A stretch of 64,000 nucleotides of DNA from Acidobacteriota bacterium. GTDB taxonomy: Bacteria; Acidobacteriota; CAIWXX01. Below the pieces are notes generated by a model. That model was not told the origin of the DNA, searched no databases, and worked only from the letters and a program-made list of their open reading frames with translations. The stretch covers positions 257,306-321,305 of the forward strand of contig JBFMAF010000032.1 of the NCBI GenBank assembly GCA_040755995.1, read 5' to 3'. Positions 53,529 through 64,000 of the stretch are shown one piece after another. Positions within the stretch are counted from its first letter, which is position 1; each line of letters opens with the position of its first letter. A program made the translations under genes and the position numbers.

Positions 53529-55352
53529 GTGCACAAGGAACTGGTCGGCATCGCAGGAGTCGTTGGCAGGGATCCCTGTCCGAAGGTTGTCCAGGAGAGG
53601 CTGCCAACGGCGAGTCGTTTCGCGCGTCTCTCTCCAGACGGGCGGGCATGCTTCGTTCACGAGTCCCCCGCAGCCTCGAGCTCGGGCCTGGGCTCGGTGC
53701 AGCTGGCTTTCGACGGGCGGATATACAATCATGATGCGTTGCGGCGTGAGCTGGGGGAGCTCGGTCACGAATTCCGCTCCGACGACGATGCCGAGCTTGT
53801 CATTCGCGGTTACGCGCAGTGGGGAGAGGACGTACTGCGGCGGCTCAACGGGGTTTGGGCTTTCGCCCTGTATGATACCGACTCCAGGAATGCGTTTTGC
53901 GCGCGGGACCGCCTGGGCGTAAGGCCGTTCTACTGGCTGGATCGAGACGAACGGTTCCACTTTTCCTCGGAGATCAGGCCGTTGCTACAGCTGAGCCGTA
54001 CCCGCGCCTCTCCACACCGGCAGCGCGTCTGCGATTTTCTGACACATGGAGGGATGTTCGCTGAGGACGAGCACGAGACATTCTTCGAAGGAGTGCGCAA
54101 GCTCCCGCCTGGCTGCTGCATGCAGGTCGACGCCGGCGGCATGAAAGTCCGGCGGTGGTGGGATCCGGAACCTGGGCGTTCGCATGACAACCTCCGGGAT
54201 CCGGCAGCCCGTTTGCGTGAGCTGCTCGATGACGCAGTCAGGCTGAGGGTGGAGTGCGCAGCCCCGTGCGTTGTGGCGGCAAGCGGCGGTCTGGACTCAT
54301 CCGCGGCTTTGTTCCTTTCCCTCCCGTATACGCCCCTCACTCCATCTACCATCTCTCTCTGCCAGACGGTTCCCTTGTTCGATGAGCGCGAATTCATCAC
54401 CCTGGCTGTCCGGGAATCGAGGAGTCGAGGCACGTTCGTTCATCCTACGGCGGAGCGGATGACGGCAGATCTCCCCGAGCTTTGGCGGGCGCATGAAGAG
54501 CCGCTCCCATCGCCCTCGTCATACGGGCATTTCCTGTTGATCAAGGAGGCTGCAGCCCGGGGATTCAAGAACATAGTTTTCGGCCATGGGCTCGACGAGA
54601 TCGCCGCGGGGTACCCCGAGCACTACTCGTTCCATCTCGCAGATCTCCGACTTGCCGGAAAGGATGATGAGTTCGAACGCGAGATCGAGTTCTGGAAGAC
54701 GCTCTATTGGGGCACCAACGAGCTCTACGAGGATTTCTTCCTGAATCATGTCACTCCGTCCGGAACCTGGAACCGCGCTGGGCACGCGGCCGGGATCGAG
54801 GCGGCCTGCGAGCTGCTCACACCCGATTTCGCCGCACTCTGTCGAGAAATCCCGGACTTCCCGCGGCCTTATCCGACGCTGCTGAAGAACGCCCTGTACC
54901 GCGACCTCCGCTTCACCTCCCTACCCACGCTTCTCCGCATCGAAGCTGCGCATTGCCGGGAGCTCGGAGTCGAGAGCCATGCGCCGTTCCTTGACCACCG
55001 GGTGGTGGAATTCATCATGTCGCTGCCGGGAGAATGCCTGATCAGTGAAGGCCAGCCCAAGTGGATAGTCCGGCGCGCGTTGGAGGGCGTGCTTCCCGAG
55101 CCTCTGCGCTGCCGGGTGAACAAGACGGGCCTGAACGTTCCCCTACAGCAGTGGTACAAAGAGGCCCTGGGCGCGGCCTTGCGCAAGGAACTGGACTCGG
55201 GCATGCCAGCCTCACTCGGCATCTTCGACACCGAGAAGCTGCGCGCCGTCGCTTCACGTCCCAACCTCGATCAGCTGACACTCATCTGGCGCGCGGTGGC
55301 CGTGTCGAGCTGGTACGTGCATTTTGCAGAAGCAGGATCGACCTCATGGTAG
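53529..55352 (+). CDS. Asparagine synthetase B-like ATP-dependent amide ligase with a degenerate glutaminase domain
   Basis: ARDRLGVRP, SGGLDSS, GLDEIAAGY and APFLDHRVVEF; no N-terminal Cys. Confidence 0.85.
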   Translation: MHKELVGIAGVVGRDPCPKVVQERLPTASRFARLSPDGRACFVHESPAASSSGLGSVQLAFDGRIYNHDALRRELGELGHEFRSDDDAELVIRGYAQWGEDVLRRLNGVWAFALYDTDSRNAFCARDRLGVRPFYWLDRDERFHFSSEIRPLLQLSRTRASPHRQRVCDFLTHGGMFAEDEHETFFEGVRKLPPGCCMQVDAGGMKVRRWWDPEPGRSHDNLRDPAARLRELLDDAVRLRVECAAPCVVAASGGLDSSAALFLSLPYTPLTPSTISLCQTVPLFDEREFITLAVRESRSRGTFVHPTAERMTADLPELWRAHEEPLPSPSSYGHFLLIKEAAARGFKNIVFGHGLDEIAAGYPEHYSFHLADLRLAGKDDEFEREIEFWKTLYWGTNELYEDFFLNHVTPSGTWNRAGHAAGIEAACELLTPDFAALCREIPDFPRPYPTLLKNALYRDLRFTSLPTLLRIEAAHCRELGVESHAPFLDHRVVEFIMSLPGECLISEGQPKWIVRRALEGVLPEPLRCRVNKTGLNVPLQQWYKEALGAALRKELDSGMPASLGIFDTEKLRAVASRPNLDQLTLIWRAVAVSSWYVHFAEAGSTSW

Positions 55353-55634
55353 GTCCGCGCAGACAAGCAATACCCAGCAGTGGATGCACGCTCTGAATCG
55401 AGGAGGCCGAAGCGTCGAGAGCGCCGCGGGAAGAGCAGCGCGCGTAGTCGGCATCGGCCCGTTCGTTTTGACGGCAGAGGCCGCAATAGCCCCGGGCTTT
55501 CGCGCCTCGTCCTCCTTCACTCCACCGTCTGAGTCGACACGAGCGCGCCGTCCCGCCTCGGCTCGGCGACGTAGGCGATCGCCCCTGCCGTAGCCGCCGC
55601 CGCGCCCCAGTCTCGCGATTGCAGCGAAGACCCC

Positions 55635-55673
55635 TTGACATGCAGCATGAACTATTCTATTATTCCATTGAAT
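55635..55673 (+). promoter_or_regulatory. Sigma70 promoter overlapped by a palindromic ArsR-type operator
   Basis: TTGACA-17-TATTAT; inverted repeat CTATTC-N12-GAATAG spanning the -10 box. Confidence 0.7.
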
Positions 55674-55688
55674 AGGAGCATATAAGGC

Positions 55689-56366
55689 ATGCGAGGACGT
55701 GACTTCAAGGATGCGGTTTTCGGCCAGTTCGCTCTGATCGCGTCGGCCTTCGCCAGTCCCAAACGGATCGAGATCATCGACATCCTGGCGCAGGGCGAGC
55801 GCAACGTGGAGACTATCGCCGCTGAGAGCGGCCTCACGGTTGCGAATACCTCCCGGCATCTGCAGGTCCTCAAGGGCGCGCACCTCGTACTCTGGCGCAA
55901 GGAGGGTCTGCAGGTCTTCTACCGCCTGGCCGATCCGATGGTTCTGAGCGGATACCGCGCCCTGCGGGGGCTCGCCGAGGCACGCCTGGCCGAGGTTGAG
56001 CGGCTGGTATGCGACTACTTCTCGGGCACTGACGGATTGGAGCCGGTGGAGTCGACGGAGCTGCTCAGGCGCGTGCGCGACCGCGATGCGATCGTAATTG
56101 ACGTGCGCCCGCGGGAGGAGTACGAGGCGGGGCACGTCAGGGGAGCGCTGTCCATCCCGCTCTCCCAGCTCAAACAACGCCTGGCCGGCCTGCCCCGGGG
56201 AAAGCAGATCGTCGCCTACTGCCGCGGACCATACTGCGTCCTCGCGGCGGAGGCCGTGCGGCTGCTCCGAACGCGCGGCTTCGATGCCGTGCGGCTGAAA
56301 GAAGGATACCCGGAATGGCGCGATGCCGGCCTCCCGGTCGCATCCGGTCCTGCCGCATCGGCGTAG
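55689..56366 (+). CDS. ArsR/SmtB regulator fused to a rhodanese domain
   Basis: ASPKRIEIIDILAQGE..SRHLQVL HTH; IDVRPREEYEAGHVRGA and YCRGPYC. Confidence 0.92.
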   Translation: MRGRDFKDAVFGQFALIASAFASPKRIEIIDILAQGERNVETIAAESGLTVANTSRHLQVLKGAHLVLWRKEGLQVFYRLADPMVLSGYRALRGLAEARLAEVERLVCDYFSGTDGLEPVESTELLRRVRDRDAIVIDVRPREEYEAGHVRGALSIPLSQLKQRLAGLPRGKQIVAYCRGPYCVLAAEAVRLLRTRGFDAVRLKEGYPEWRDAGLPVASGPAASA

Positions 56367-56384
56367 AGGAGGGAGGGCACGGCG

Positions 56385-56738
56385 ATGAGACTACTCGTGA
56401 TCCTCAACGATCCGCCGTACGGGACGGAGCGGTCCTACAACGGCCTGCGGCTCGCACTGAGCGTTCTGAAGAGCAGCGAAGAGACCGGCGTCACCGTATT
56501 CCTGATGGGGGACGCTGTCGCCGCGGCCAAGGCCGGACAACAGACCCCGACTGGATACTACAACATCGAGCGAATGCTGCGGGGCGTCCTGACCCGCCGG
56601 GGGGACGTCCTTCTTTGTGGAACGTGCATGGATGCCCGCGGCCTCCGCGACGAGGAGATCCTGGAAGGAGGTCGCCGGAGCACAATGGATGAGCTCACCG
56701 GGCTCACGACTACCGCCGACAAGGTTCTGGTTTTCTAA
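56385..56738 (+). CDS. DsrE/YchN family sulfur-relay protein
   Basis: NDPPYGTERSYNGLRLA, FLMGDAV and LCGTCMDARG. Confidence 0.9.
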   Translation: MRLLVILNDPPYGTERSYNGLRLALSVLKSSEETGVTVFLMGDAVAAAKAGQQTPTGYYNIERMLRGVLTRRGDVLLCGTCMDARGLRDEEILEGGRRSTMDELTGLTTTADKVLVF

Positions 56739-56749
56739 AGGGAGAGACA

Positions 56750-57277
56750 ATGACAGAGCAGATAGTCCACTCGATACTACTCGCCCTGCACAACATCGCG
56801 CTGGTCGGCTGTGCCGCAGCGCCGTTCTACAACCGGGCGCTCGTCGTGAAACGCGGCCAGTACGGTCCGAGACTTCACTATGAGCTGGACAAGGTGGTGG
56901 AGGATACTCTGCAGGGCAACACACCATACTGCATCACCTTCATCATCACGCTTTTCGCGACCGGAATTGCGATGCCGCTCAACCACTACCTGTTCCAAGG
57001 ATCTCTTCGGACGACGAACACTGTGGTGCTGACGGCGCTGGCCGTCAAGCTGGTCGCCGTCTTTGCGATGGTGGGGATCATGTTGGTGATCTTCGGCCGG
57101 ATCAACCCGCGCCTTCGCGCGCTCTGGTCCCGCTTCGCCCCCGGCGTGAAGCCTGATGAGGTTGAGGAGAAGGAATTCTTCGCCCTTCGCTCCCGGCGAA
57201 AGGCACTCTGCGAGACCTGCCTCAAGTTCGCCGTGGTCGTTCTCGTGGCCAGCGCCTTTCTCGGGTTCGGGGCGTGA
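56750..57277 (+). CDS. Four-TM hypothetical membrane protein
   Basis: Four hydrophobic segments; His residues in TM1 and a CETC motif near the last TM. Confidence 0.75.
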   Translation: MTEQIVHSILLALHNIALVGCAAAPFYNRALVVKRGQYGPRLHYELDKVVEDTLQGNTPYCITFIITLFATGIAMPLNHYLFQGSLRTTNTVVLTALAVKLVAVFAMVGIMLVIFGRINPRLRALWSRFAPGVKPDEVEEKEFFALRSRRKALCETCLKFAVVVLVASAFLGFGA

Positions 57278-57303
57278 GGATGAAGTCGAATATGGAGGAT
57301 GCA

Positions 57304-57831
57304 GTGAAACCTAACAACGTGAACATGACAGGGATGATGGCCTTCGTCGAGCAGGCCAAGAGCGACCCGGCGGTGCTGAAGAAGCAGAAGCGGGTCGATG
57401 GCGTTTGGAACCTGGCGGAAGGGCAGCCGCAATTTGCGGCGACGCTCGCCTACCCGGCGGGCGAGAGAACGCTCGAGACCGACCTTCCGCCGTTCATGGG
57501 CGGCGCCGGTCTTGCGCCGGATCCCATCCAATATTGTCTCTTCGGCCTGGCGGCGTGTTTCGCAGGGACCTTCGTTTCGCTGGCCGCCATGGACGGCGTC
57601 ACGCTGTCGAGCCTGCGTGTCATCGCCGAGAATCAGCTCGATCTGACGCGCCCGATGGGGCTGGGAGACAAGCCGGTGGTCGAGAAGGTCACGCTGAGGC
57701 TGCTCGTCGAGTCTGACGCAGACGACGCGAGGCTTCAGGAGCTCGAGCGGCTGGCGCGCGAGCGCTGCCCCGGCGTCTACTGCCTGACGCAGCCGATTCC
57801 TCTCGAAACGCGCGTCGAGCGGCCCCGCTGA
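57304..57831 (+). CDS. OsmC/Ohr family protein (start could be 57280)
   Basis: DLPPFMGGAGLAPDP..LAAC and RCPGVYCL. Confidence 0.88.
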   Translation: MKPNNVNMTGMMAFVEQAKSDPAVLKKQKRVDGVWNLAEGQPQFAATLAYPAGERTLETDLPPFMGGAGLAPDPIQYCLFGLAACFAGTFVSLAAMDGVTLSSLRVIAENQLDLTRPMGLGDKPVVEKVTLRLLVESDADDARLQELERLARERCPGVYCLTQPIPLETRVERPR

Positions 57832-57898
57832 CGCCGCGTCTACGCGGGACAGCACGATGTCAGGCGCATAGGGACCAAAGAGCAGGAGTCAAAGCATC

Positions 57899-60208
57899 GT
57901 GATAGGTTTTTCTCTGGTGGAGTTTTCGGTGCGCCGCCCGAGGCTCGTCGTGGGTCTCGCCGCGACTCTCACTATCCTCTTCCTGCTACCGTTTCGAAAG
58001 ATCAGCACGGATACCAATCCGAAGAACATGCTGCCCCCGACCTCAGATGTGCGTCTGTCCAACGACGAGGTCGAGAAGACCTTCGGGCTCTACGAAGACA
58101 TGATCGTCGTCGGGATCCAGAACGACGCCGGCATTCTCAATGAGGCAACCCTGGGGAGGATACAGCGGATCACCGAGGAGACCCTCACGATCGAGGGCGT
58201 GGCGGCAAGGGACGTATCGAGTTTCACGACGATCGACAACGTGACGATCAGGGAGGGGACTCTGACGATCGAGCCCCTCATGCCCCAAACTCCCACAGAG
58301 GTAGCCCAGATCGAGTCACTCAGGGAGCAGCTTTTCGAGAACCCGTTGTTTCTCGGGCGCATCATCTCTCGCGACGCCAGGACGGCGGCCATCTACGTAC
58401 CGCTCGAAAAAGGGGCGAACGGCAAGGCGGTGGCCGATCGCATCCGTGAGATTGTGGCGAAGGAGAACGGCCCCGAGAGGTATTACATAGCCGGCGATCC
58501 GGTGGCGCGAGACACCTTCGGCGCAGTGATGTTCAAGCTGATGGCGATCTTCTCTCCGATTGCCGGCCTGATCATGTTCGTGGTGATGTTCGTGATGTTC
58601 CGCAATCTCGCGCTGCCCATGGTGATGATGGGCGCCGCGATGATCAGCATCATCTGGAGCATGGGCCTGGTGATTGCGCTGGGCTTCCCCATTCACATCA
58701 TGTCGTCGATGAGCCCGGTCTTCCTGATGGCCATCGCCACCGACAGCATCCACATCTTCAACGAGTTGTATTTTCGCCTTCGCGAAGGCAAAGACCGCCG
58801 CGTCGCCGTGCTCGAGACGATGCAGGCGGTCAGCAGGCCCGTCCGGTACACCGCGCTCGCGACCGCCGCCGGATTCGCTGCGCTCATGCTCATGAGCATC
58901 GTGCCGGTCAGGGTCTTCGGCGGTTTGATTGCTTTCGGCACGATAGCTCTCCGGTTGCTGAGCTTCAGTTTCATCCCCGCTGTGTTGATGCTGTTGGACG
59001 AAGGCCGGCTCCTCGGCACGTCGACGGGGGAGGACAGCGAGCGTGGGCCGGTGGCGAGGTGGCTGCGGGCACTTGGCGGGATCGGGGCATATCATCCGGC
59101 GGCCACAGTGATCGTGGCCGTGGTGCTGGCGGCCGGTTCCATTCTTGGAACCACCCGGATCGTGGTCAACAACAACATGGTCAAGTGGTTCAAGGAAGGG
59201 AGCGAGGTCAGGACGGCCGATGCGGTCATGAACAGGGCTTTGGGCGGCACCTCCCTTGGCTACGTCGTGGCGATCTCGGGTTCGCCTGAGGAGGAGCTCA
59301 TCAAGAACCCTGCGGCGATGCGCTACATCGAGGGTCTCCAGCGGGATCTCGAAAAGCTCCCGCTGGTCGGGAAAACAACGTCGGTCGTGGATTACGTGAA
59401 GAGAATCAACCGAGTCCTGCACGGCGACGATCCTGCGTACGATGTTGTGCCGGACTCCAAGGACCAGATCGGCCAATATCTGTTTCTCTTCTCGATGAGC
59501 GCGAAACCGGCCGATCTCGACAACGTGGTGGACTCGGCCTTCCAAAAGGCGAACATCTGGGTCCAGCTGAAGAGCTGGGACGCGGAAGCAATGCGCGAGG
59601 TCATCCGCCAGATGGAGGAGTACCAGAGATCGCATCACGCGGCGATGACCCTGAAGCCGGCGGGCATCGCCTACTTCAACCTCGTGTGGAACGACGAGGT
59701 CCTCTGGGACATGCTCCGAGGCTTTCTCCTTGCGCTCGTCGTGGTTTTCGGTATCCTCGCAATCAACTTCCGTTCGTTCAAGTGGGCGATCGTCGGATAC
59801 ACTCCGCTGCTTCTGACGGTGCTCTTCATCTACGGGGCCGTAGGGCTGATGAGAAAGGACTTCGACATGCCGATCTCCGTGCTCTCTTGCCTGTCGCTCG
59901 GCATGGCGGTCGACTTCTCGATCCATTTCATCAACCGGTTGAGGCAGCGGGTGGCGGAGGGGCCGGAGCCGCTCCCGGAAGCGTTGCTGTGGACAGCCGC
60001 CCGCCCCGGAAGGGGCATCATTCGGAACGCCCTTCTGTTTGCGCTCGCATTCTCGGTGATGATCTTCGCGCCGCTGACCCCATACGTCACCGTGGGCGCC
60101 TTCATCGCAAGCATGATGATGCTGAGCGCGTTGTTCTCTATCATCCTTCTTCCCGCGCTGATCGTACTGCTCCGGCGCCGGTTGTTTTCGTCACAGGAGG
60201 GATACTGA
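57899..60208 (+). CDS. MMPL/RND family transporter
   Basis: Duplicated architecture with ATDSIH and GMAVDFSIH TM4/TM10 motifs. Confidence 0.9.
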   Translation: MIGFSLVEFSVRRPRLVVGLAATLTILFLLPFRKISTDTNPKNMLPPTSDVRLSNDEVEKTFGLYEDMIVVGIQNDAGILNEATLGRIQRITEETLTIEGVAARDVSSFTTIDNVTIREGTLTIEPLMPQTPTEVAQIESLREQLFENPLFLGRIISRDARTAAIYVPLEKGANGKAVADRIREIVAKENGPERYYIAGDPVARDTFGAVMFKLMAIFSPIAGLIMFVVMFVMFRNLALPMVMMGAAMISIIWSMGLVIALGFPIHIMSSMSPVFLMAIATDSIHIFNELYFRLREGKDRRVAVLETMQAVSRPVRYTALATAAGFAALMLMSIVPVRVFGGLIAFGTIALRLLSFSFIPAVLMLLDEGRLLGTSTGEDSERGPVARWLRALGGIGAYHPAATVIVAVVLAAGSILGTTRIVVNNNMVKWFKEGSEVRTADAVMNRALGGTSLGYVVAISGSPEEELIKNPAAMRYIEGLQRDLEKLPLVGKTTSVVDYVKRINRVLHGDDPAYDVVPDSKDQIGQYLFLFSMSAKPADLDNVVDSAFQKANIWVQLKSWDAEAMREVIRQMEEYQRSHHAAMTLKPAGIAYFNLVWNDEVLWDMLRGFLLALVVVFGILAINFRSFKWAIVGYTPLLLTVLFIYGAVGLMRKDFDMPISVLSCLSLGMAVDFSIHFINRLRQRVAEGPEPLPEALLWTAARPGRGIIRNALLFALAFSVMIFAPLTPYVTVGAFIASMMMLSALFSIILLPALIVLLRRRLFSSQEGY

Positions 60209-60209
60209 G

Positions 60210-61019
60210 ATGTCATTGACGAGGTTTCTCGGAGTTGTGTTCGCCGCAGCCGGCATGGCGACTGCCAGCGCCAGCCCGCTTGTTGCCGAGCCGCTAGATG
60301 CGACGGAGGTGGTGAACCGGATGCACAAGGCGTTCTTCTATCAGGGAGAGAGCCTGCGCGCCCGCGTCAAGATGACACTATCGAGCGCGGATGTGAAGCA
60401 GCGGATTCGCGAGCTCGTCATGCTGCGGCTCAACATGCCTCTGGCCGGCGAGCAGCGGTATTTCATGTATTTCCACTCTCCCGGGGACGTTCGAGGGATG
60501 AGCTTCCTGGTCTACAAGTACCCGGCCAAGGAAGACGATCGGTGGCTGTTCATTCCAGCGCTGAGCCTGGTGCAGCGCGTTGCCGCGAGAGATGCTGGTT
60601 CCAGCTTTGTCGGCTCTGACTTCACTTACGAGGATGTCTCCGGACGAGACTTGGAAGCCGACGAGCACAAACTGTTGCGGGAGGAGGACCACAAGGGCAA
60701 GCCCTGCTTTGTGATTGAGAGCGTGGCGAAAGGAGCCGCGTCGTACAAGAAAAGGATCTCATGGATCGACAAGAGCAGCTACCTCCCGCTCCGGGAGGAG
60801 TACTCCGACGTTCAGGGCAAGGTCTTCAAGGAATTCACCGCAGGTGAGATCCGCGAGGTCGAGGGCATTCCCACGATGATGACACGCACCATGAAGAGTC
60901 TCAAGACAGGACATCAGACGCTCGTGGAGTTCTCCGATGTGCGGTACCGCCTTGCGCTCAAGCCCGATGACTTCGGCGAGCGATCGTTGCGGAATCCACC
61001 CAATAGCTGGATCGAATGA
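60210..61019 (+). CDS. LolA-like outer membrane lipoprotein-sorting protein
   Basis: FHSPGDVRGMSFL, DDRWLFIPAL and SFVGSDFTYED. Confidence 0.88.
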   Translation: MSLTRFLGVVFAAAGMATASASPLVAEPLDATEVVNRMHKAFFYQGESLRARVKMTLSSADVKQRIRELVMLRLNMPLAGEQRYFMYFHSPGDVRGMSFLVYKYPAKEDDRWLFIPALSLVQRVAARDAGSSFVGSDFTYEDVSGRDLEADEHKLLREEDHKGKPCFVIESVAKGAASYKKRISWIDKSSYLPLREEYSDVQGKVFKEFTAGEIREVEGIPTMMTRTMKSLKTGHQTLVEFSDVRYRLALKPDDFGERSLRNPPNSWIE

Positions 61020-62278
61020 GCGCTGTGGTGAGACGCGCAGCCTTGTTGGGCTGCATCATGCTCGCCGGAGAGTCGAGCCTGATCGCGAGTCTCCAATGGC
61101 ACGGATTCGTTTTGGGAAACTACGCGGCTCGCCTAGACGCGCCAAATGGACACAAGCCGGCATCAGGCGATTTCCTTCTGGCCGAGGAAAGATTTCAACT
61201 TAAGATGGCGGCCTCCGCATCGGAAGGCCAGATGCACTGCTTCGTCAAGACCGACCTCGTTCGCGACGAGGTCGACAGCGATGTTTCGGTCGATGTTCGC
61301 GAAGTCTATGTCAGCTTCGCCGAAGGGCCGCTCGATCTCAGCATCGGCCGGCAGATTCACACGTGGGGAGTCGGTGATCTCCTGTTCATCAATGATCTGT
61401 TTCCAAAGGACTACGCCGCGCTTTTCTCGGGCCGGCCGATGGAGTATTTGAAAGTGGGATCGAGCGGCGTCAAGGCCAGCCTCTACGGCACGTCGCTGTC
61501 CCTCGACGTCGTCGTCACACCCTTCTTCGAGGCCGATGTGCTCCCGAGCGCCGATCGATTCTTCCTGTTCGATCCTTTCTCGGGGCTCGTCCCCCGCGTC
61601 GAGGCGAAGCCGCGGCGCGATCTTCAAAACACGGAGATCGCTGCGAGGCTTCGCCGTTCGGTTGCCGGTTTCGACGTGGCGGCGTATGCGTATCGGGGGT
61701 TCTATCGGATCCCTTCGACGCAACCCGACTCGCCCACCACGCCGACGATGGTGTCGCTCGTCTATCCGAAACTTTCGTCGTACGGCGCGAGCGCTCAGGG
61801 CAACGCGCTCGGCGGGGTGCTGAGCATCGAGGCGGGCTATCACGACTCAAGAGAGGACCGCGACGGCTCCAACCCGGTCATCCCCAACTCGCAAACCCGG
61901 TTCCTCATCGGCTACCAGCGCTCCCCCTGGAGCGACACCATCATCGGCTTCCAGTACTATGGAGAGTACATGCAACGCTACCGTCGGTACGAGGCCTCGC
62001 TGCCGGCTGGATTCCCGAAGCAGGATCGACTCCGGCAGGTCCTGACCCTGAGGCTGATGCAGTCGCTGAAGTACCAGACATGGAGAATCTCTCTCTTCAC
62101 GTTCTGGAGCCCGACCGATCACGACTTCTACGCCATCCCCGAGCTGGCACATCGCCTGAGCGATGAGCTCTCTCTGACCCTCGGGGCCAACATTTTCGGC
62201 GGATCGTCCGCGGCTACCTTCTTCGGCCAGCTCAGCCACAACGACAACCTGTACTTCGCAGCTCGCTACGATTTCTGA
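61016..62278 (+). CDS. Outer-membrane beta-barrel protein (DUF1302-like)
   Basis: Signal peptide, REVYV, IGRQIHTWGVGD, FFGQL and terminal ARYDF. Confidence 0.8.
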   Translation: MSAVVRRAALLGCIMLAGESSLIASLQWHGFVLGNYAARLDAPNGHKPASGDFLLAEERFQLKMAASASEGQMHCFVKTDLVRDEVDSDVSVDVREVYVSFAEGPLDLSIGRQIHTWGVGDLLFINDLFPKDYAALFSGRPMEYLKVGSSGVKASLYGTSLSLDVVVTPFFEADVLPSADRFFLFDPFSGLVPRVEAKPRRDLQNTEIAARLRRSVAGFDVAAYAYRGFYRIPSTQPDSPTTPTMVSLVYPKLSSYGASAQGNALGGVLSIEAGYHDSREDRDGSNPVIPNSQTRFLIGYQRSPWSDTIIGFQYYGEYMQRYRRYEASLPAGFPKQDRLRQVLTLRLMQSLKYQTWRISLFTFWSPTDHDFYAIPELAHRLSDELSLTLGANIFGGSSAATFFGQLSHNDNLYFAARYDF

Positions 62279-62548
62279 ACGATTCGCGCAAGCGAGGCGT
62301 GGCAGGCTGCCGCGTCCCGCCATTCGCCATGTGGGCGAGATGTCGTCGGGCCCCCCCACTTCCTCTGGTTCCCCTGGGCGAGGCGGGCAGAGGAAGCTCA
62401 GATCGGTCTCTCATCACGCGAGCAGTCTTGGGGAGTGCGGCAACGCACGATGGTAGCTGAGAGCTGCTGCGAGACCGCGGTTCCGCATCATCGTGTGGTC
62501 CGAAGGCCGGTGCAGGGACAGCAGTCGGCGGGAGGCAGCACAACCAAC

Positions 62549-62577
62549 TTGACTGCGGCGCTCCGGTGTCCTACATT
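62549..62577 (+). promoter_or_regulatory. Sigma70-type promoter facing the cassette array
   Basis: TTGACT-17 bp-TACATT. Confidence 0.55.
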
Positions 62578-62632
62578 CTCGTATACCTGCGGGGATTGTC
62601 TCGTGAAGGAAGACAGGCGGAGAGGATAGATC

Positions 62633-62691
62633 GTCGAACCACGGCTTTCAGCGTATGCGCTAGCGCGCGCCGCTGAAGCCGAACGTTGGGG
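62633..62691 (+). mobile_element. Integron attC site 1
   Basis: GTCGAAC-cacggctttcagcg...cgctgaagccg-aac-GTTGGGG; arms pair with one extra base. Confidence 0.85.
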
Positions 62692-62699
62692 ACACGAGG

Positions 62700-63248
62700 A
62701 TGAAGACTTCAATCGCCCTGATTCTGCTCACATCGTGCGCGCTGGCTCAGGCTGAGGATATCCGAGTGCAGCAGATTCCCGTGAAGCGTATCGCCGGGGT
62801 TCTGCCAAGAGCCTGGTTCATCGAATCCGTGGACACGGCGGCAACCGTGTCCGGGTGGGACAGACTCCAAGGCTCCCGAGGGATTAGGATCATCATATCG
62901 CGACACCCCTACGATCTCACACTAGCTCCGACGAAGGCCGGCGGACTCTCAGTCGACATCCCGCAAGTCGTTCTCTACGTCTTCCCATCGGACTTCGAAG
63001 GGAAGCATGTGAACAACTCCTCAATCTTCCGAGCAGGGAAGGTCATTCCGTCAGACACGACAGCATTCGCGGATCGCGCCGTGCTGATCATGGACAAATT
63101 CACGAAGGTCGGGCAGTGGTATGTCTTTCACAACGCTCCGTCGTTCTCCGATTGGAGGAATCCCGTCGGAGACATGACGGAAGCAATGAAGGAAATCCCC
63201 AACCAGGGGCTATTGCATACGCCGCTACGCGGCGCCGCTGAGCCCTAA
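62700..63248 (+). CDS. Gene cassette: secreted hypothetical protein
   Basis: Signal peptide; starts 8 bp after attC1 and reads into attC2. Confidence 0.8.
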   Translation: MKTSIALILLTSCALAQAEDIRVQQIPVKRIAGVLPRAWFIESVDTAATVSGWDRLQGSRGIRIIISRHPYDLTLAPTKAGGLSVDIPQVVLYVFPSDFEGKHVNNSSIFRAGKVIPSDTTAFADRAVLIMDKFTKVGQWYVFHNAPSFSDWRNPVGDMTEAMKEIPNQGLLHTPLRGAAEP

Positions 63249-63256
63249 CGTTCGGC
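63197..63256 (+). mobile_element. Integron attC site 2
   Basis: CCCCAAC-caggggct...cgccgctacgcggcg...gagccct-aac-GTTCGGC. Confidence 0.8.
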
Positions 63257-63267
63257 ACAGGAGAAAG

Positions 63268-63768
63268 ATGAGAGCAACTCTCGCCATGTTGATCCTCATG
63301 GGAGGTATATGCCCGGCTTCCGAAGAGAAGCCGATGATCCCGGTAGGTTTCCACGCCCAAGCAGAACTCGCCGTATTCAAGAGCGGCAAGCCCCTCCTCA
63401 TGAGTCTCACGCTCACCAACGATTCATCCAGACCGATTCGTTTCACAACTTTCTCGACCGAACCCAATGAATGGAACGGCGAGACCTTCAACATCAGCCT
63501 TGTTGATGTCCACAGGATCGGAGAGAGGCGGAATCTGTGCTTGGCCCGTCCCGAGTTGAGAGTCCCGTTGACCGTATCGGGCCCCGGCTCACATTCGATC
63601 CAGCCAGGGAGGAATCTTCGCGTCACGATCGATACGAGCAAATGGAGAATAGACGGGGATTGGATCAAAGGAGAATACGCCCTGGTTTTCAGAATGGACA
63701 ACATCACGGTTGAGGACAAGATCAGCATATCGATACTAAGTGAGCCCGTCCACGTAATCGTACAATGA
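63268..63768 (+). CDS. Gene cassette: secreted beta-sandwich-like hypothetical protein
   Basis: Signal peptide, AGGAG RBS and lower GC; lies between attC2 and attC3. Confidence 0.8.
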   Translation: MRATLAMLILMGGICPASEEKPMIPVGFHAQAELAVFKSGKPLLMSLTLTNDSSRPIRFTTFSTEPNEWNGETFNISLVDVHRIGERRNLCLARPELRVPLTVSGPGSHSIQPGRNLRVTIDTSKWRIDGDWIKGEYALVFRMDNITVEDKISISILSEPVHVIVQ

Positions 63769-63773
63769 AGAAT

Positions 63774-63852
63774 GCCGAACCAACAGATCCAGGTGACAAG
63801 CAATAGCCTCTCGGACACGACTATTGCTTGCCCCTGATCTGAGTCGTTGGGC
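63774..63852 (+). mobile_element. Integron attC site 3
   Basis: GCCGAAC-caacagatccagg..caagcaatag...ctattgcttg..cctgatctg-agtc-GTTGGGC. Confidence 0.88.
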
Positions 63853-63904
63853 GGGCCCGGCTTTGCAGGTGGCGGAACGCCAGCGATCCTCTAAGGAGCA
63901 ATCG

Positions 63905-64000
63905 ATGAAACAATTGAAGGGGTTGGCAGTGCTTCTGACGGGCGGGTCCCGCGGTATCGGGCCAATAGTGGCTGAGGCTCTGGCAAAGCGAGGTGCCAAC
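63905..64000 (+). CDS. SDR family oxidoreductase (runs off the window; not in the ORF track)
   Basis: TAAGGAG RBS; MKQLKGLAVLLTGGSRGIGPIVAEALAKRGAN contains TGxxxGIG. Confidence 0.85.
   Translation, partial: MKQLKGLAVLLTGGSRGIGPIVAEALAKRGAN

Follow-up and report, generated by a model that had tools for sequence, protein, structure and literature searches.

The window analysed here is the whole 64,000-bp stretch at positions 257306-321305 of contig C32 (419,211 bp) of an Acidobacteriota genome (7.7 Mb, 56 contigs). At its right-hand end, three attC-like palindromes separate genes of one orientation; they lie ~320 kb and ~97 kb from the two ends of the contig, so the arrangement is not a contig-edge artefact. 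The features are listed in window numbering, which is extended for those beyond position 64000.

62268..62286, + strand: 19-bp direct repeat, left copy; covers the stop codon of the DUF1302-like gene upstream
62279..62632, + strand: leader, with no recognisable attI or intI remnant
62549..62577, + strand: candidate sigma70-like promoter, TTGACT-17-TACATT, weak (9/12 consensus bases)
62633..62691, + strand: attC1, 59 bp; L box 7/7 paired; model R2 36.9 bits, model R1 16.3 bits
62700..63248, + strand: cassette 1 gene (182 aa), near-orphan with a predicted signal peptide; attC2 is read through by its last 16 codons
63197..63256, + strand: attC2, 60 bp; decayed L box with 5/7 pairs; R2 18.9 bits, R1 17.8 bits
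63268..63768, + strand: cassette 2 gene, 166 aa, predicted signal peptide and predicted Ig-like beta-sandwich, unnamed family
63774..63852, + strand: attC3, 79 bp; L box 7/7 paired; R2 35.8 bits, R1 22.4 bits; folding z -4.5
63905..64711 (outside the window beyond 64000), + strand: cassette 3 gene, short-chain dehydrogenase (SDR), 268 aa; PF00106 E 2e-51
64716-64832: fourth attC, broken, with a recognisable left arm and no proper fold
64972-64990: right copy of the 19-bp direct repeat, remnant of a duplicated gene end

Three attC sites on one strand

An initial sequence-only reading had described palindromes of 59, 60 and 79 bp, and all three are present. In attC sites the R'' box ends in AAC and the R' box starts with GTT, the spacers to the L boxes are 5 bp and 5-6 bp long and the total length is 55-141 bp; all three sites agree in boxes and spacers and share the anatomy R''-5-L''-VTS-L'-6-R'. 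The RYYY and RRRY parts deviate (e.g. GTCGAAC), as they do in other sites of this genome and in another Acidobacteriota locus, L054. Pairing of L'' with L' around one extrahelical bottom-strand base is complete in attC1 and attC3 (7/7), partial in attC2 (5/7) and lacking in the fourth site. The core sites cross-match over each cassette just as had been read from the letters, GTTGGGG at 62685 with CCCCAAC at 63197 and GTTCGGC at 63250 with GCCGAAC at 63774, each in 7/7 positions.

Two covariance models were searched against the window. R1, for which 17 attC sites were taken from class 1 plasmid integrons and Gemmatirosa and this genome was left out, gave four matches at E<=1; the top three are the array sites at their exact coordinates (22.4, 17.8 and 16.3 bits), and since the fourth, an unrelated site, reaches 15.5 bits, R1 alone separates sites poorly. 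R2 was built from 27 attC sites, which include 10 from elsewhere in this genome but not the three under study; it scored the latter at 36.9, 35.8 and 18.9 bits, with the next best match at 14.7. The structure imposed on the R2 training set covaries, with 92.6% of cells paired and 0/500 shuffles as high. An Rfam search of the window returned no match. A position-weight scan of the genome was dropped for site counts because it missed attC2 and because the true genome and a reversed control separate only above 25-30 bits (18 vs 4 and 10 vs 0).

Folding of the bottom strands, a check suggested at the outset, gave z -2.9 for attC1, z -4.5 for attC3 and z -1.2 for attC2, which folds no better than shuffles; top strands gave similar values, and folding energy shows no preference for the bottom strand. 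attC2, which is read through by the gene of cassette 1, is degenerate and would be doubtful on its own. Junctions of the modelled cassette circles fold with the full R box (-19.1 vs -14.7 and -24.9 vs -19.6 kcal/mol).

On another reading the palindromes would be hairpins that arose by chance, terminators or REP-like repeats, and the genes around them ordinary residents. It can draw on the poor folding of attC2, which 27/200 shuffles equal, and on the unrelated window site that R1 scores nearly as high as attC1. Set against it are the two 7/7 core cross-matches, the two sites with R2 E-values near 1e-6 and homology breakpoints at G|TT in two independent data sets, described below; the breakpoints already refute it. 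This explanation is extremely improbable.

No integrase on the contig

Clusters with two attC sites or more and no nearby intI are defined as CALINs in the cited part of PMC4889954. Here three sites lie on one strand within 1.22 kb, against a requirement of two within 4 kb, and past the window the array continues with the SDR cassette and then the broken fourth site, which has 7.8 bits with R1, no match with R2, a folding z of -0.4 and a core that agrees with the R' box of attC3 in 5/7 positions. Within 10 kb on either side the best IntI match has E 1.1, and the whole 419-kb contig holds none at E<=0.1, so the early suggestion that intI might lie just beyond the window falls away. Neither intI nor attI, which together would mark a complete integron, was found beside the array.

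Across the genome, one IntI match (TIGR02249) exceeds the cut-off, at C36:325985-326929, with an internal TAA; judged by the catalytic motif, it presumably also lacks the first catalytic arginine. This copy (L018, G000:C36:325694-328930) has an N-terminal extension of ~100 residues; downstream of it, in the same orientation, are two apparent cassettes. Further intI fragments lie on C55 (two), C47 and C34, and the N-terminal piece of the C36 copy is found again in internally deleted fragments on C47, C55 and C34. An intact intI may lie in a gap of the 56-contig assembly. IntI matches above the cut-off occur in 11/40 related genomes (10 without the unpublished G025), so an integrase could come from outside. 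We infer that the array is now inactive.

The array has each defining feature of a CALIN that could be tested, and the locus is very probably such an attC cluster without integrase, in which three mobile gene cassettes are stranded far from any integrase. The reading of an attC cluster without an adjacent intI thus holds, in that the covariance models match and C32 carries no IntI. It had been staked on covariance-model hits and on the lack of conserved synteny without attC sites; R1 and R2 match all three sites, and neither cassette 1 nor cassette 2 is syntenic in relatives. At the DNA level, the 2.85-kb array region gave only two short, chance-level matches in 40 relatives. GC3 of the cassette genes is 0.70, 0.66 and 0.49, compared with 0.76-0.83 in the genes upstream.

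With 150 of 12,032 candidates scored, R2 lists 20 attC matches in this genome, of which 10 are training sites and 2 belong to this array. A second cluster without integrase lies ~90 kb upstream on C32 (L020, G000:C32:228454-230803) and has three strong sites and one weak site; one 79-bp site of it has a near-identical counterpart on C55. Two contigs share one and the same 66-bp attC, palindromic almost throughout, at C28:49230-49295 and C33:134883-134948. A Gemmatirosa replicon (L015:9607-16876) carries an integron arranged as on C36, with intI and, on its strand, at least 15 attC sites.

Leader and transcription

A 64-codon ORF in the leader (62435-62629) stops 3 bp short of attC1 and may be what is left of a truncated cassette's end. 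The leader resembles neither IntI nor the region behind the C36 intI (279/300 shuffles score as well), and no second copy of it was found in the genome. A relative, X4, shares the leader only up to 62532.

The promoter that had been proposed to drive the array, TTGACT-17-TACATT, is present at 62549-62577, in the part of the leader absent from X4. The proposal stays weak: the site matches 9/12 consensus bases, and 1.8 kb held two such sites compared with 0.5 +/- 0.7 in shuffles. No plus-strand terminator-like site was found in 62200-64000, and read-through from the co-oriented upstream genes is therefore as plausible as the leader promoter. The cassettes are likely to be transcribed jointly by one of these two routes. 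The upstream operon (55689-62278) comprises ArsR-rhodanese, DsrE, membrane protein, OsmC, MMPL/RND, LolA-like and DUF1302-like genes; it is partly conserved in the related genomes G001 and G014 and is possibly linked to sulfur- or redox-related export.

Cargo of the cassettes

Cassettes 1 and 2 both encode proteins with hydrophobic N-termini, in line with the signal peptides ascribed to them. Neither could be assigned to a family at the outset and this still holds for both, although cassette 2 now has a confidently predicted fold. Cassette 1 has one homologue, P0002 (51% over 146 aa), among 5.8 billion clusters in the length range searched, and P0002 ends about where attC2 begins. No copy was found in 400 other genomes of the phylum and no match in Pfam, NCBIfam, PHROG or PADLOC; one weak viral match covers a short stretch at 29%. 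The Atlas model of cassette 1 was unusable, with pLDDT 0.43 and every TM by query below 0.4.

The family of cassette 2 comprises 137 clusters at 50% identity and corresponds to no Pfam family; its record titles name Planctomycetota, Verrucomicrobiota, Gemmatimonadota and Acidobacteriota. A hydrophobic N-terminus is present in 63/67 single-domain members of 160-200 aa. Structure prediction and Foldseek comparison, as had been suggested, yielded a confident Ig-like sandwich for the mature domain (pLDDT 96.7, pTM 0.89) from a 75-sequence alignment, which replaced a first model from 22 close sequences (pLDDT 56.9, no Foldseek match at E<=0.001).

The best structural match is the N-terminal domain of AsaP1 (residues 23-152, PDB 2x3a; Z 9.8, rmsd 3.4, 117 aligned, Foldseek E 4e-4), which we take to be the inhibitory propeptide of a metalloendopeptidase. 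It is in effect tied with Bacillus subtilis IPI (PDB 3isy; Z 9.6, rmsd 4.1, 116 residues) and a TRAP subunit (Z 9.4, rmsd 3.3, 112 aligned), and ApaG-type domains score similarly. The nearest named Atlas cluster is BsuPI (0.90, 189/256 features), and 0/75 family members match the BsuPI model PF12690 at E<=0.1; the family profile gave nothing below E 0.069 among PDB sequences. Like IPI (BsuPI, PF12690, PDB 3isy), in the part of PMC3901451 cited here, cassette 2 has an Ig-like sandwich, and its homologues have signal peptides and also occur in multidomain proteins, but it is 15% identical to IPI, ~30 residues longer and has its own conserved motifs, PNxWNGET and KWxxxxGWxxGxY. It differs from AsaP1 in its 16% identity and in that no peptidase domain occurs in the longer homologues examined: 0/30 scanned carry one, and 31 read yielded one chance HExxH. 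These longer members are fusions to LRR, TPR, HEAT and Big_5 modules.

The model suggests that cassette 2 probably encodes a secreted protein-binding Ig-like module, a reading held with moderate confidence. A peptidase inhibitor would be the best specific guess, and quite an unlikely one, weakened by the three unrelated folds that tie at Z 9.4-9.8, by the 0/75 BsuPI matches and by the questioned role of IPI, whose function as an inhibitor is itself doubted in the cited part of PMC3901451.

Among 34 loci with homologues of cassette 2, seven carry an attC that scores over 20 bits and lies no more than ~110 bp from the gene (L021, L023, L029, L030, L036, L037 and L054; two pairs share flanks, leaving ~5 independent cases). 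One of the other 27 has a weak attC and the rest have none, so the family is not mainly cassette-borne. In L054 (273-10374) the homologue lies in a large array with 14 full plus-strand attC matches in 10.4 kb.

The SDR of cassette 3 has 672 relatives at E<=1e-60, and the best 120 of these 672, itself aside, are 78-91% identical. In run X1 one relative has a GTTAGGC core before the gene.

Evidence of past cassette exchange

Past mobility is recorded twice in sequence comparisons, in the metagenome locus L021 and in X4. L021 carries cassette 2 with its 79-bp attC between unrelated flanks. Between 63250 and 63848, the G|TT of attC2 and the GTT of attC3, 560/600 positions (93%) are identical; outside these crossover points identity is at background level (27/74 and 20/108 columns). 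Cassette 2 thus occurs, from core site to attC, as one unit next to different neighbours, as expected of a gene cassette. In L021:1-310 it is preceded by a transposase-like gene end (assigned by eye) and a pyrimidine-rich tract with GTCTGACCCC, without an attC; this motif is one that occurs in REP-like elements.

Along 55573-62532 the 27-kb contig from X4 is colinear with the window, with 591 differences over 6,960 bases. The 1,312 bases that follow here are replaced there by 1,146 unlike ones; from 63845, a single base ahead of the G|TT crossover of attC3, the two sequences align again for 908 bases with 42 differences. The left junction (62532) is not at a GTT, so the swap was not a clean IntI event at both ends and a deletion or a truncated cassette is likely in one lineage.

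A bracketing repeat and the origin of the array

The two copies of the 19-bp repeat are 18/19 identical and 2,704 bp apart, and they are the only matches with <=2 mismatches in the 7.7-Mb genome. At the same right-hand place X4 keeps at least 116+14 bp of a duplicated DUF1302-like gene end. G001, a member of the same family, has behind the same operon 466 bp duplicated from this gene's 3' end and 745 bp duplicated from elsewhere in the operon. Neither model finds an attC there; what look like attC relics at this place were dismissed for want of a model match and for a folding z of +0.65. Behind the operon in G001 (L069:8630-13490), the partial duplicates lie among three apparent toxin-antitoxin pairs and insertion-sequence remnants (assigned by eye), which gives this gene end the look of a hot spot for insertion.

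An integrative island would end up flanked by direct repeats of its target gene end. The array may accordingly have come as one block, a segment with the DUF1302-like 3' end and cassettes that recombined into the gene end and was left between two gene-end copies, with cassettes swapped afterwards. The 18/19 repeat over the stop codon, which encloses the entire array and has no further copy in the genome, fits such an entry, as do the longer duplicate in X4 (at least 130 bp, in the matching position) and the 466-bp duplicate in G001. Between the repeats, however, only the three cassette genes and no recombinase gene or integrase of the element's own were found, and the 745-bp duplicate and lack of attC in G001 point to local duplication and deletion rather than to a site-specific island. 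Block insertion at the gene end is possible, local duplication explains the data equally well, and entry as one block is rather unlikely.

Insertion of cassettes one by one at an attG site behind the operon, by an IntI encoded elsewhere at a time when a now-broken copy worked, is a serious candidate, though short of an even chance. In the cited part of 10.1101/2022.09.11.507474, insertion by IntI at short GWT sites genome-wide is a demonstrated route and a proposed source of small CALINs. Several small attC clusters in this genome (on C32, C33, C34 and C55), the exchange of cassettes at the locus after the split from X4, and the position of cassette 2 behind non-attC sequence in L021 are consistent with it. 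No GTT core matching the R'' box of attC1 lies in 55000-62632, however, so the first insertion point is not visible, and the bracketing repeat is left unexplained.

The array could instead be what remains of a complete integron at this place after deletion of intI and attI. Several internally deleted intI pieces occur in the genome, one beside the attC cluster on C34; in the layout of C36 an intI would sit upstream in the same orientation, and the lineages differ in their leader. Yet no trace of IntI appears within 10 kb on either side, the leader does not resemble the region behind the C36 intI, and X4 shares it to 62532, which leaves little room for intI. This origin is unlikely.

Discussion

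The system itself is ordinary and of a known kind; the cargo is the unfamiliar part. In the cited parts of PMC4889954 and PMC9024848, CALINs have at least two attC sites on one strand <4 kb apart, few cassettes and mostly unknown cargo, with no intI or intI pseudogene within 10 kb and an intI elsewhere in the genome, and the present array does not differ in kind. Its particulars are local: all intI copies found are broken, and the array lies between duplicated gene-end remnants. According to the portion of PMC4889954 used here, 95% of CALINs have no nearby intI pseudogene and about half lie on a replicon with an intI. CALINs are common, with 2,961 counted in 21,105 complete genomes (PMC9024848; 10.1101/2022.09.11.507474, in the parts cited), 1,362 of which hold two cassettes by the count in the cited part of 10.1101/2022.09.11.507474. 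Signal peptides are enriched in cassette cargo (16.1% vs 6.8%, as given in the cited section of PMC10661359). The array also resembles the SALINs and attG-site insertions described in part of 10.1101/2022.09.11.507474, in being a small orphan cassette group at a chromosomal site without attI; the copy of cassette 2 in L021 resembles a single insertion of this type, whereas at the array itself the first insertion junction is not identifiable.

Recombination of cassette attC sites as bottom strands, and the origins of CALINs, are treated in the cited parts of PMC8352920, PMC4889954 and 10.1101/2022.09.11.507474. The order of events at the present array is one that we infer. The cassettes likely came in as circles, each joined to the preceding site by recombination through its own attC, folded as a bottom strand; such integration would explain the agreement between the start of each cassette and its own R'' box. 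If an integrase came in, units could still be excised via attC1 and attC3.

A bolder proposal combines the guesses about cargo and entry: cassette 2 would be the first example of an undescribed and widespread family of stand-alone secreted peptidase inhibitors, with an IPI- or propeptide-like Ig fold, passed by integrons against foreign proteases, and the array would have entered as a block at the duplicated gene end. Taken as a whole, it is very unlikely.

The array adds one small CALIN to the thousands already counted. Cassette 2 defines an unnamed secreted Ig-like family with a confident predicted model and conserved motifs, and if its protein were truly a protease inhibitor, it would represent a new class of cassette function. 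Furthermore, the locus provides a natural, base-precise record of cassette exchange at a place without an integrase, between two relatives, which bears on the question whether CALINs stay active as reservoirs.
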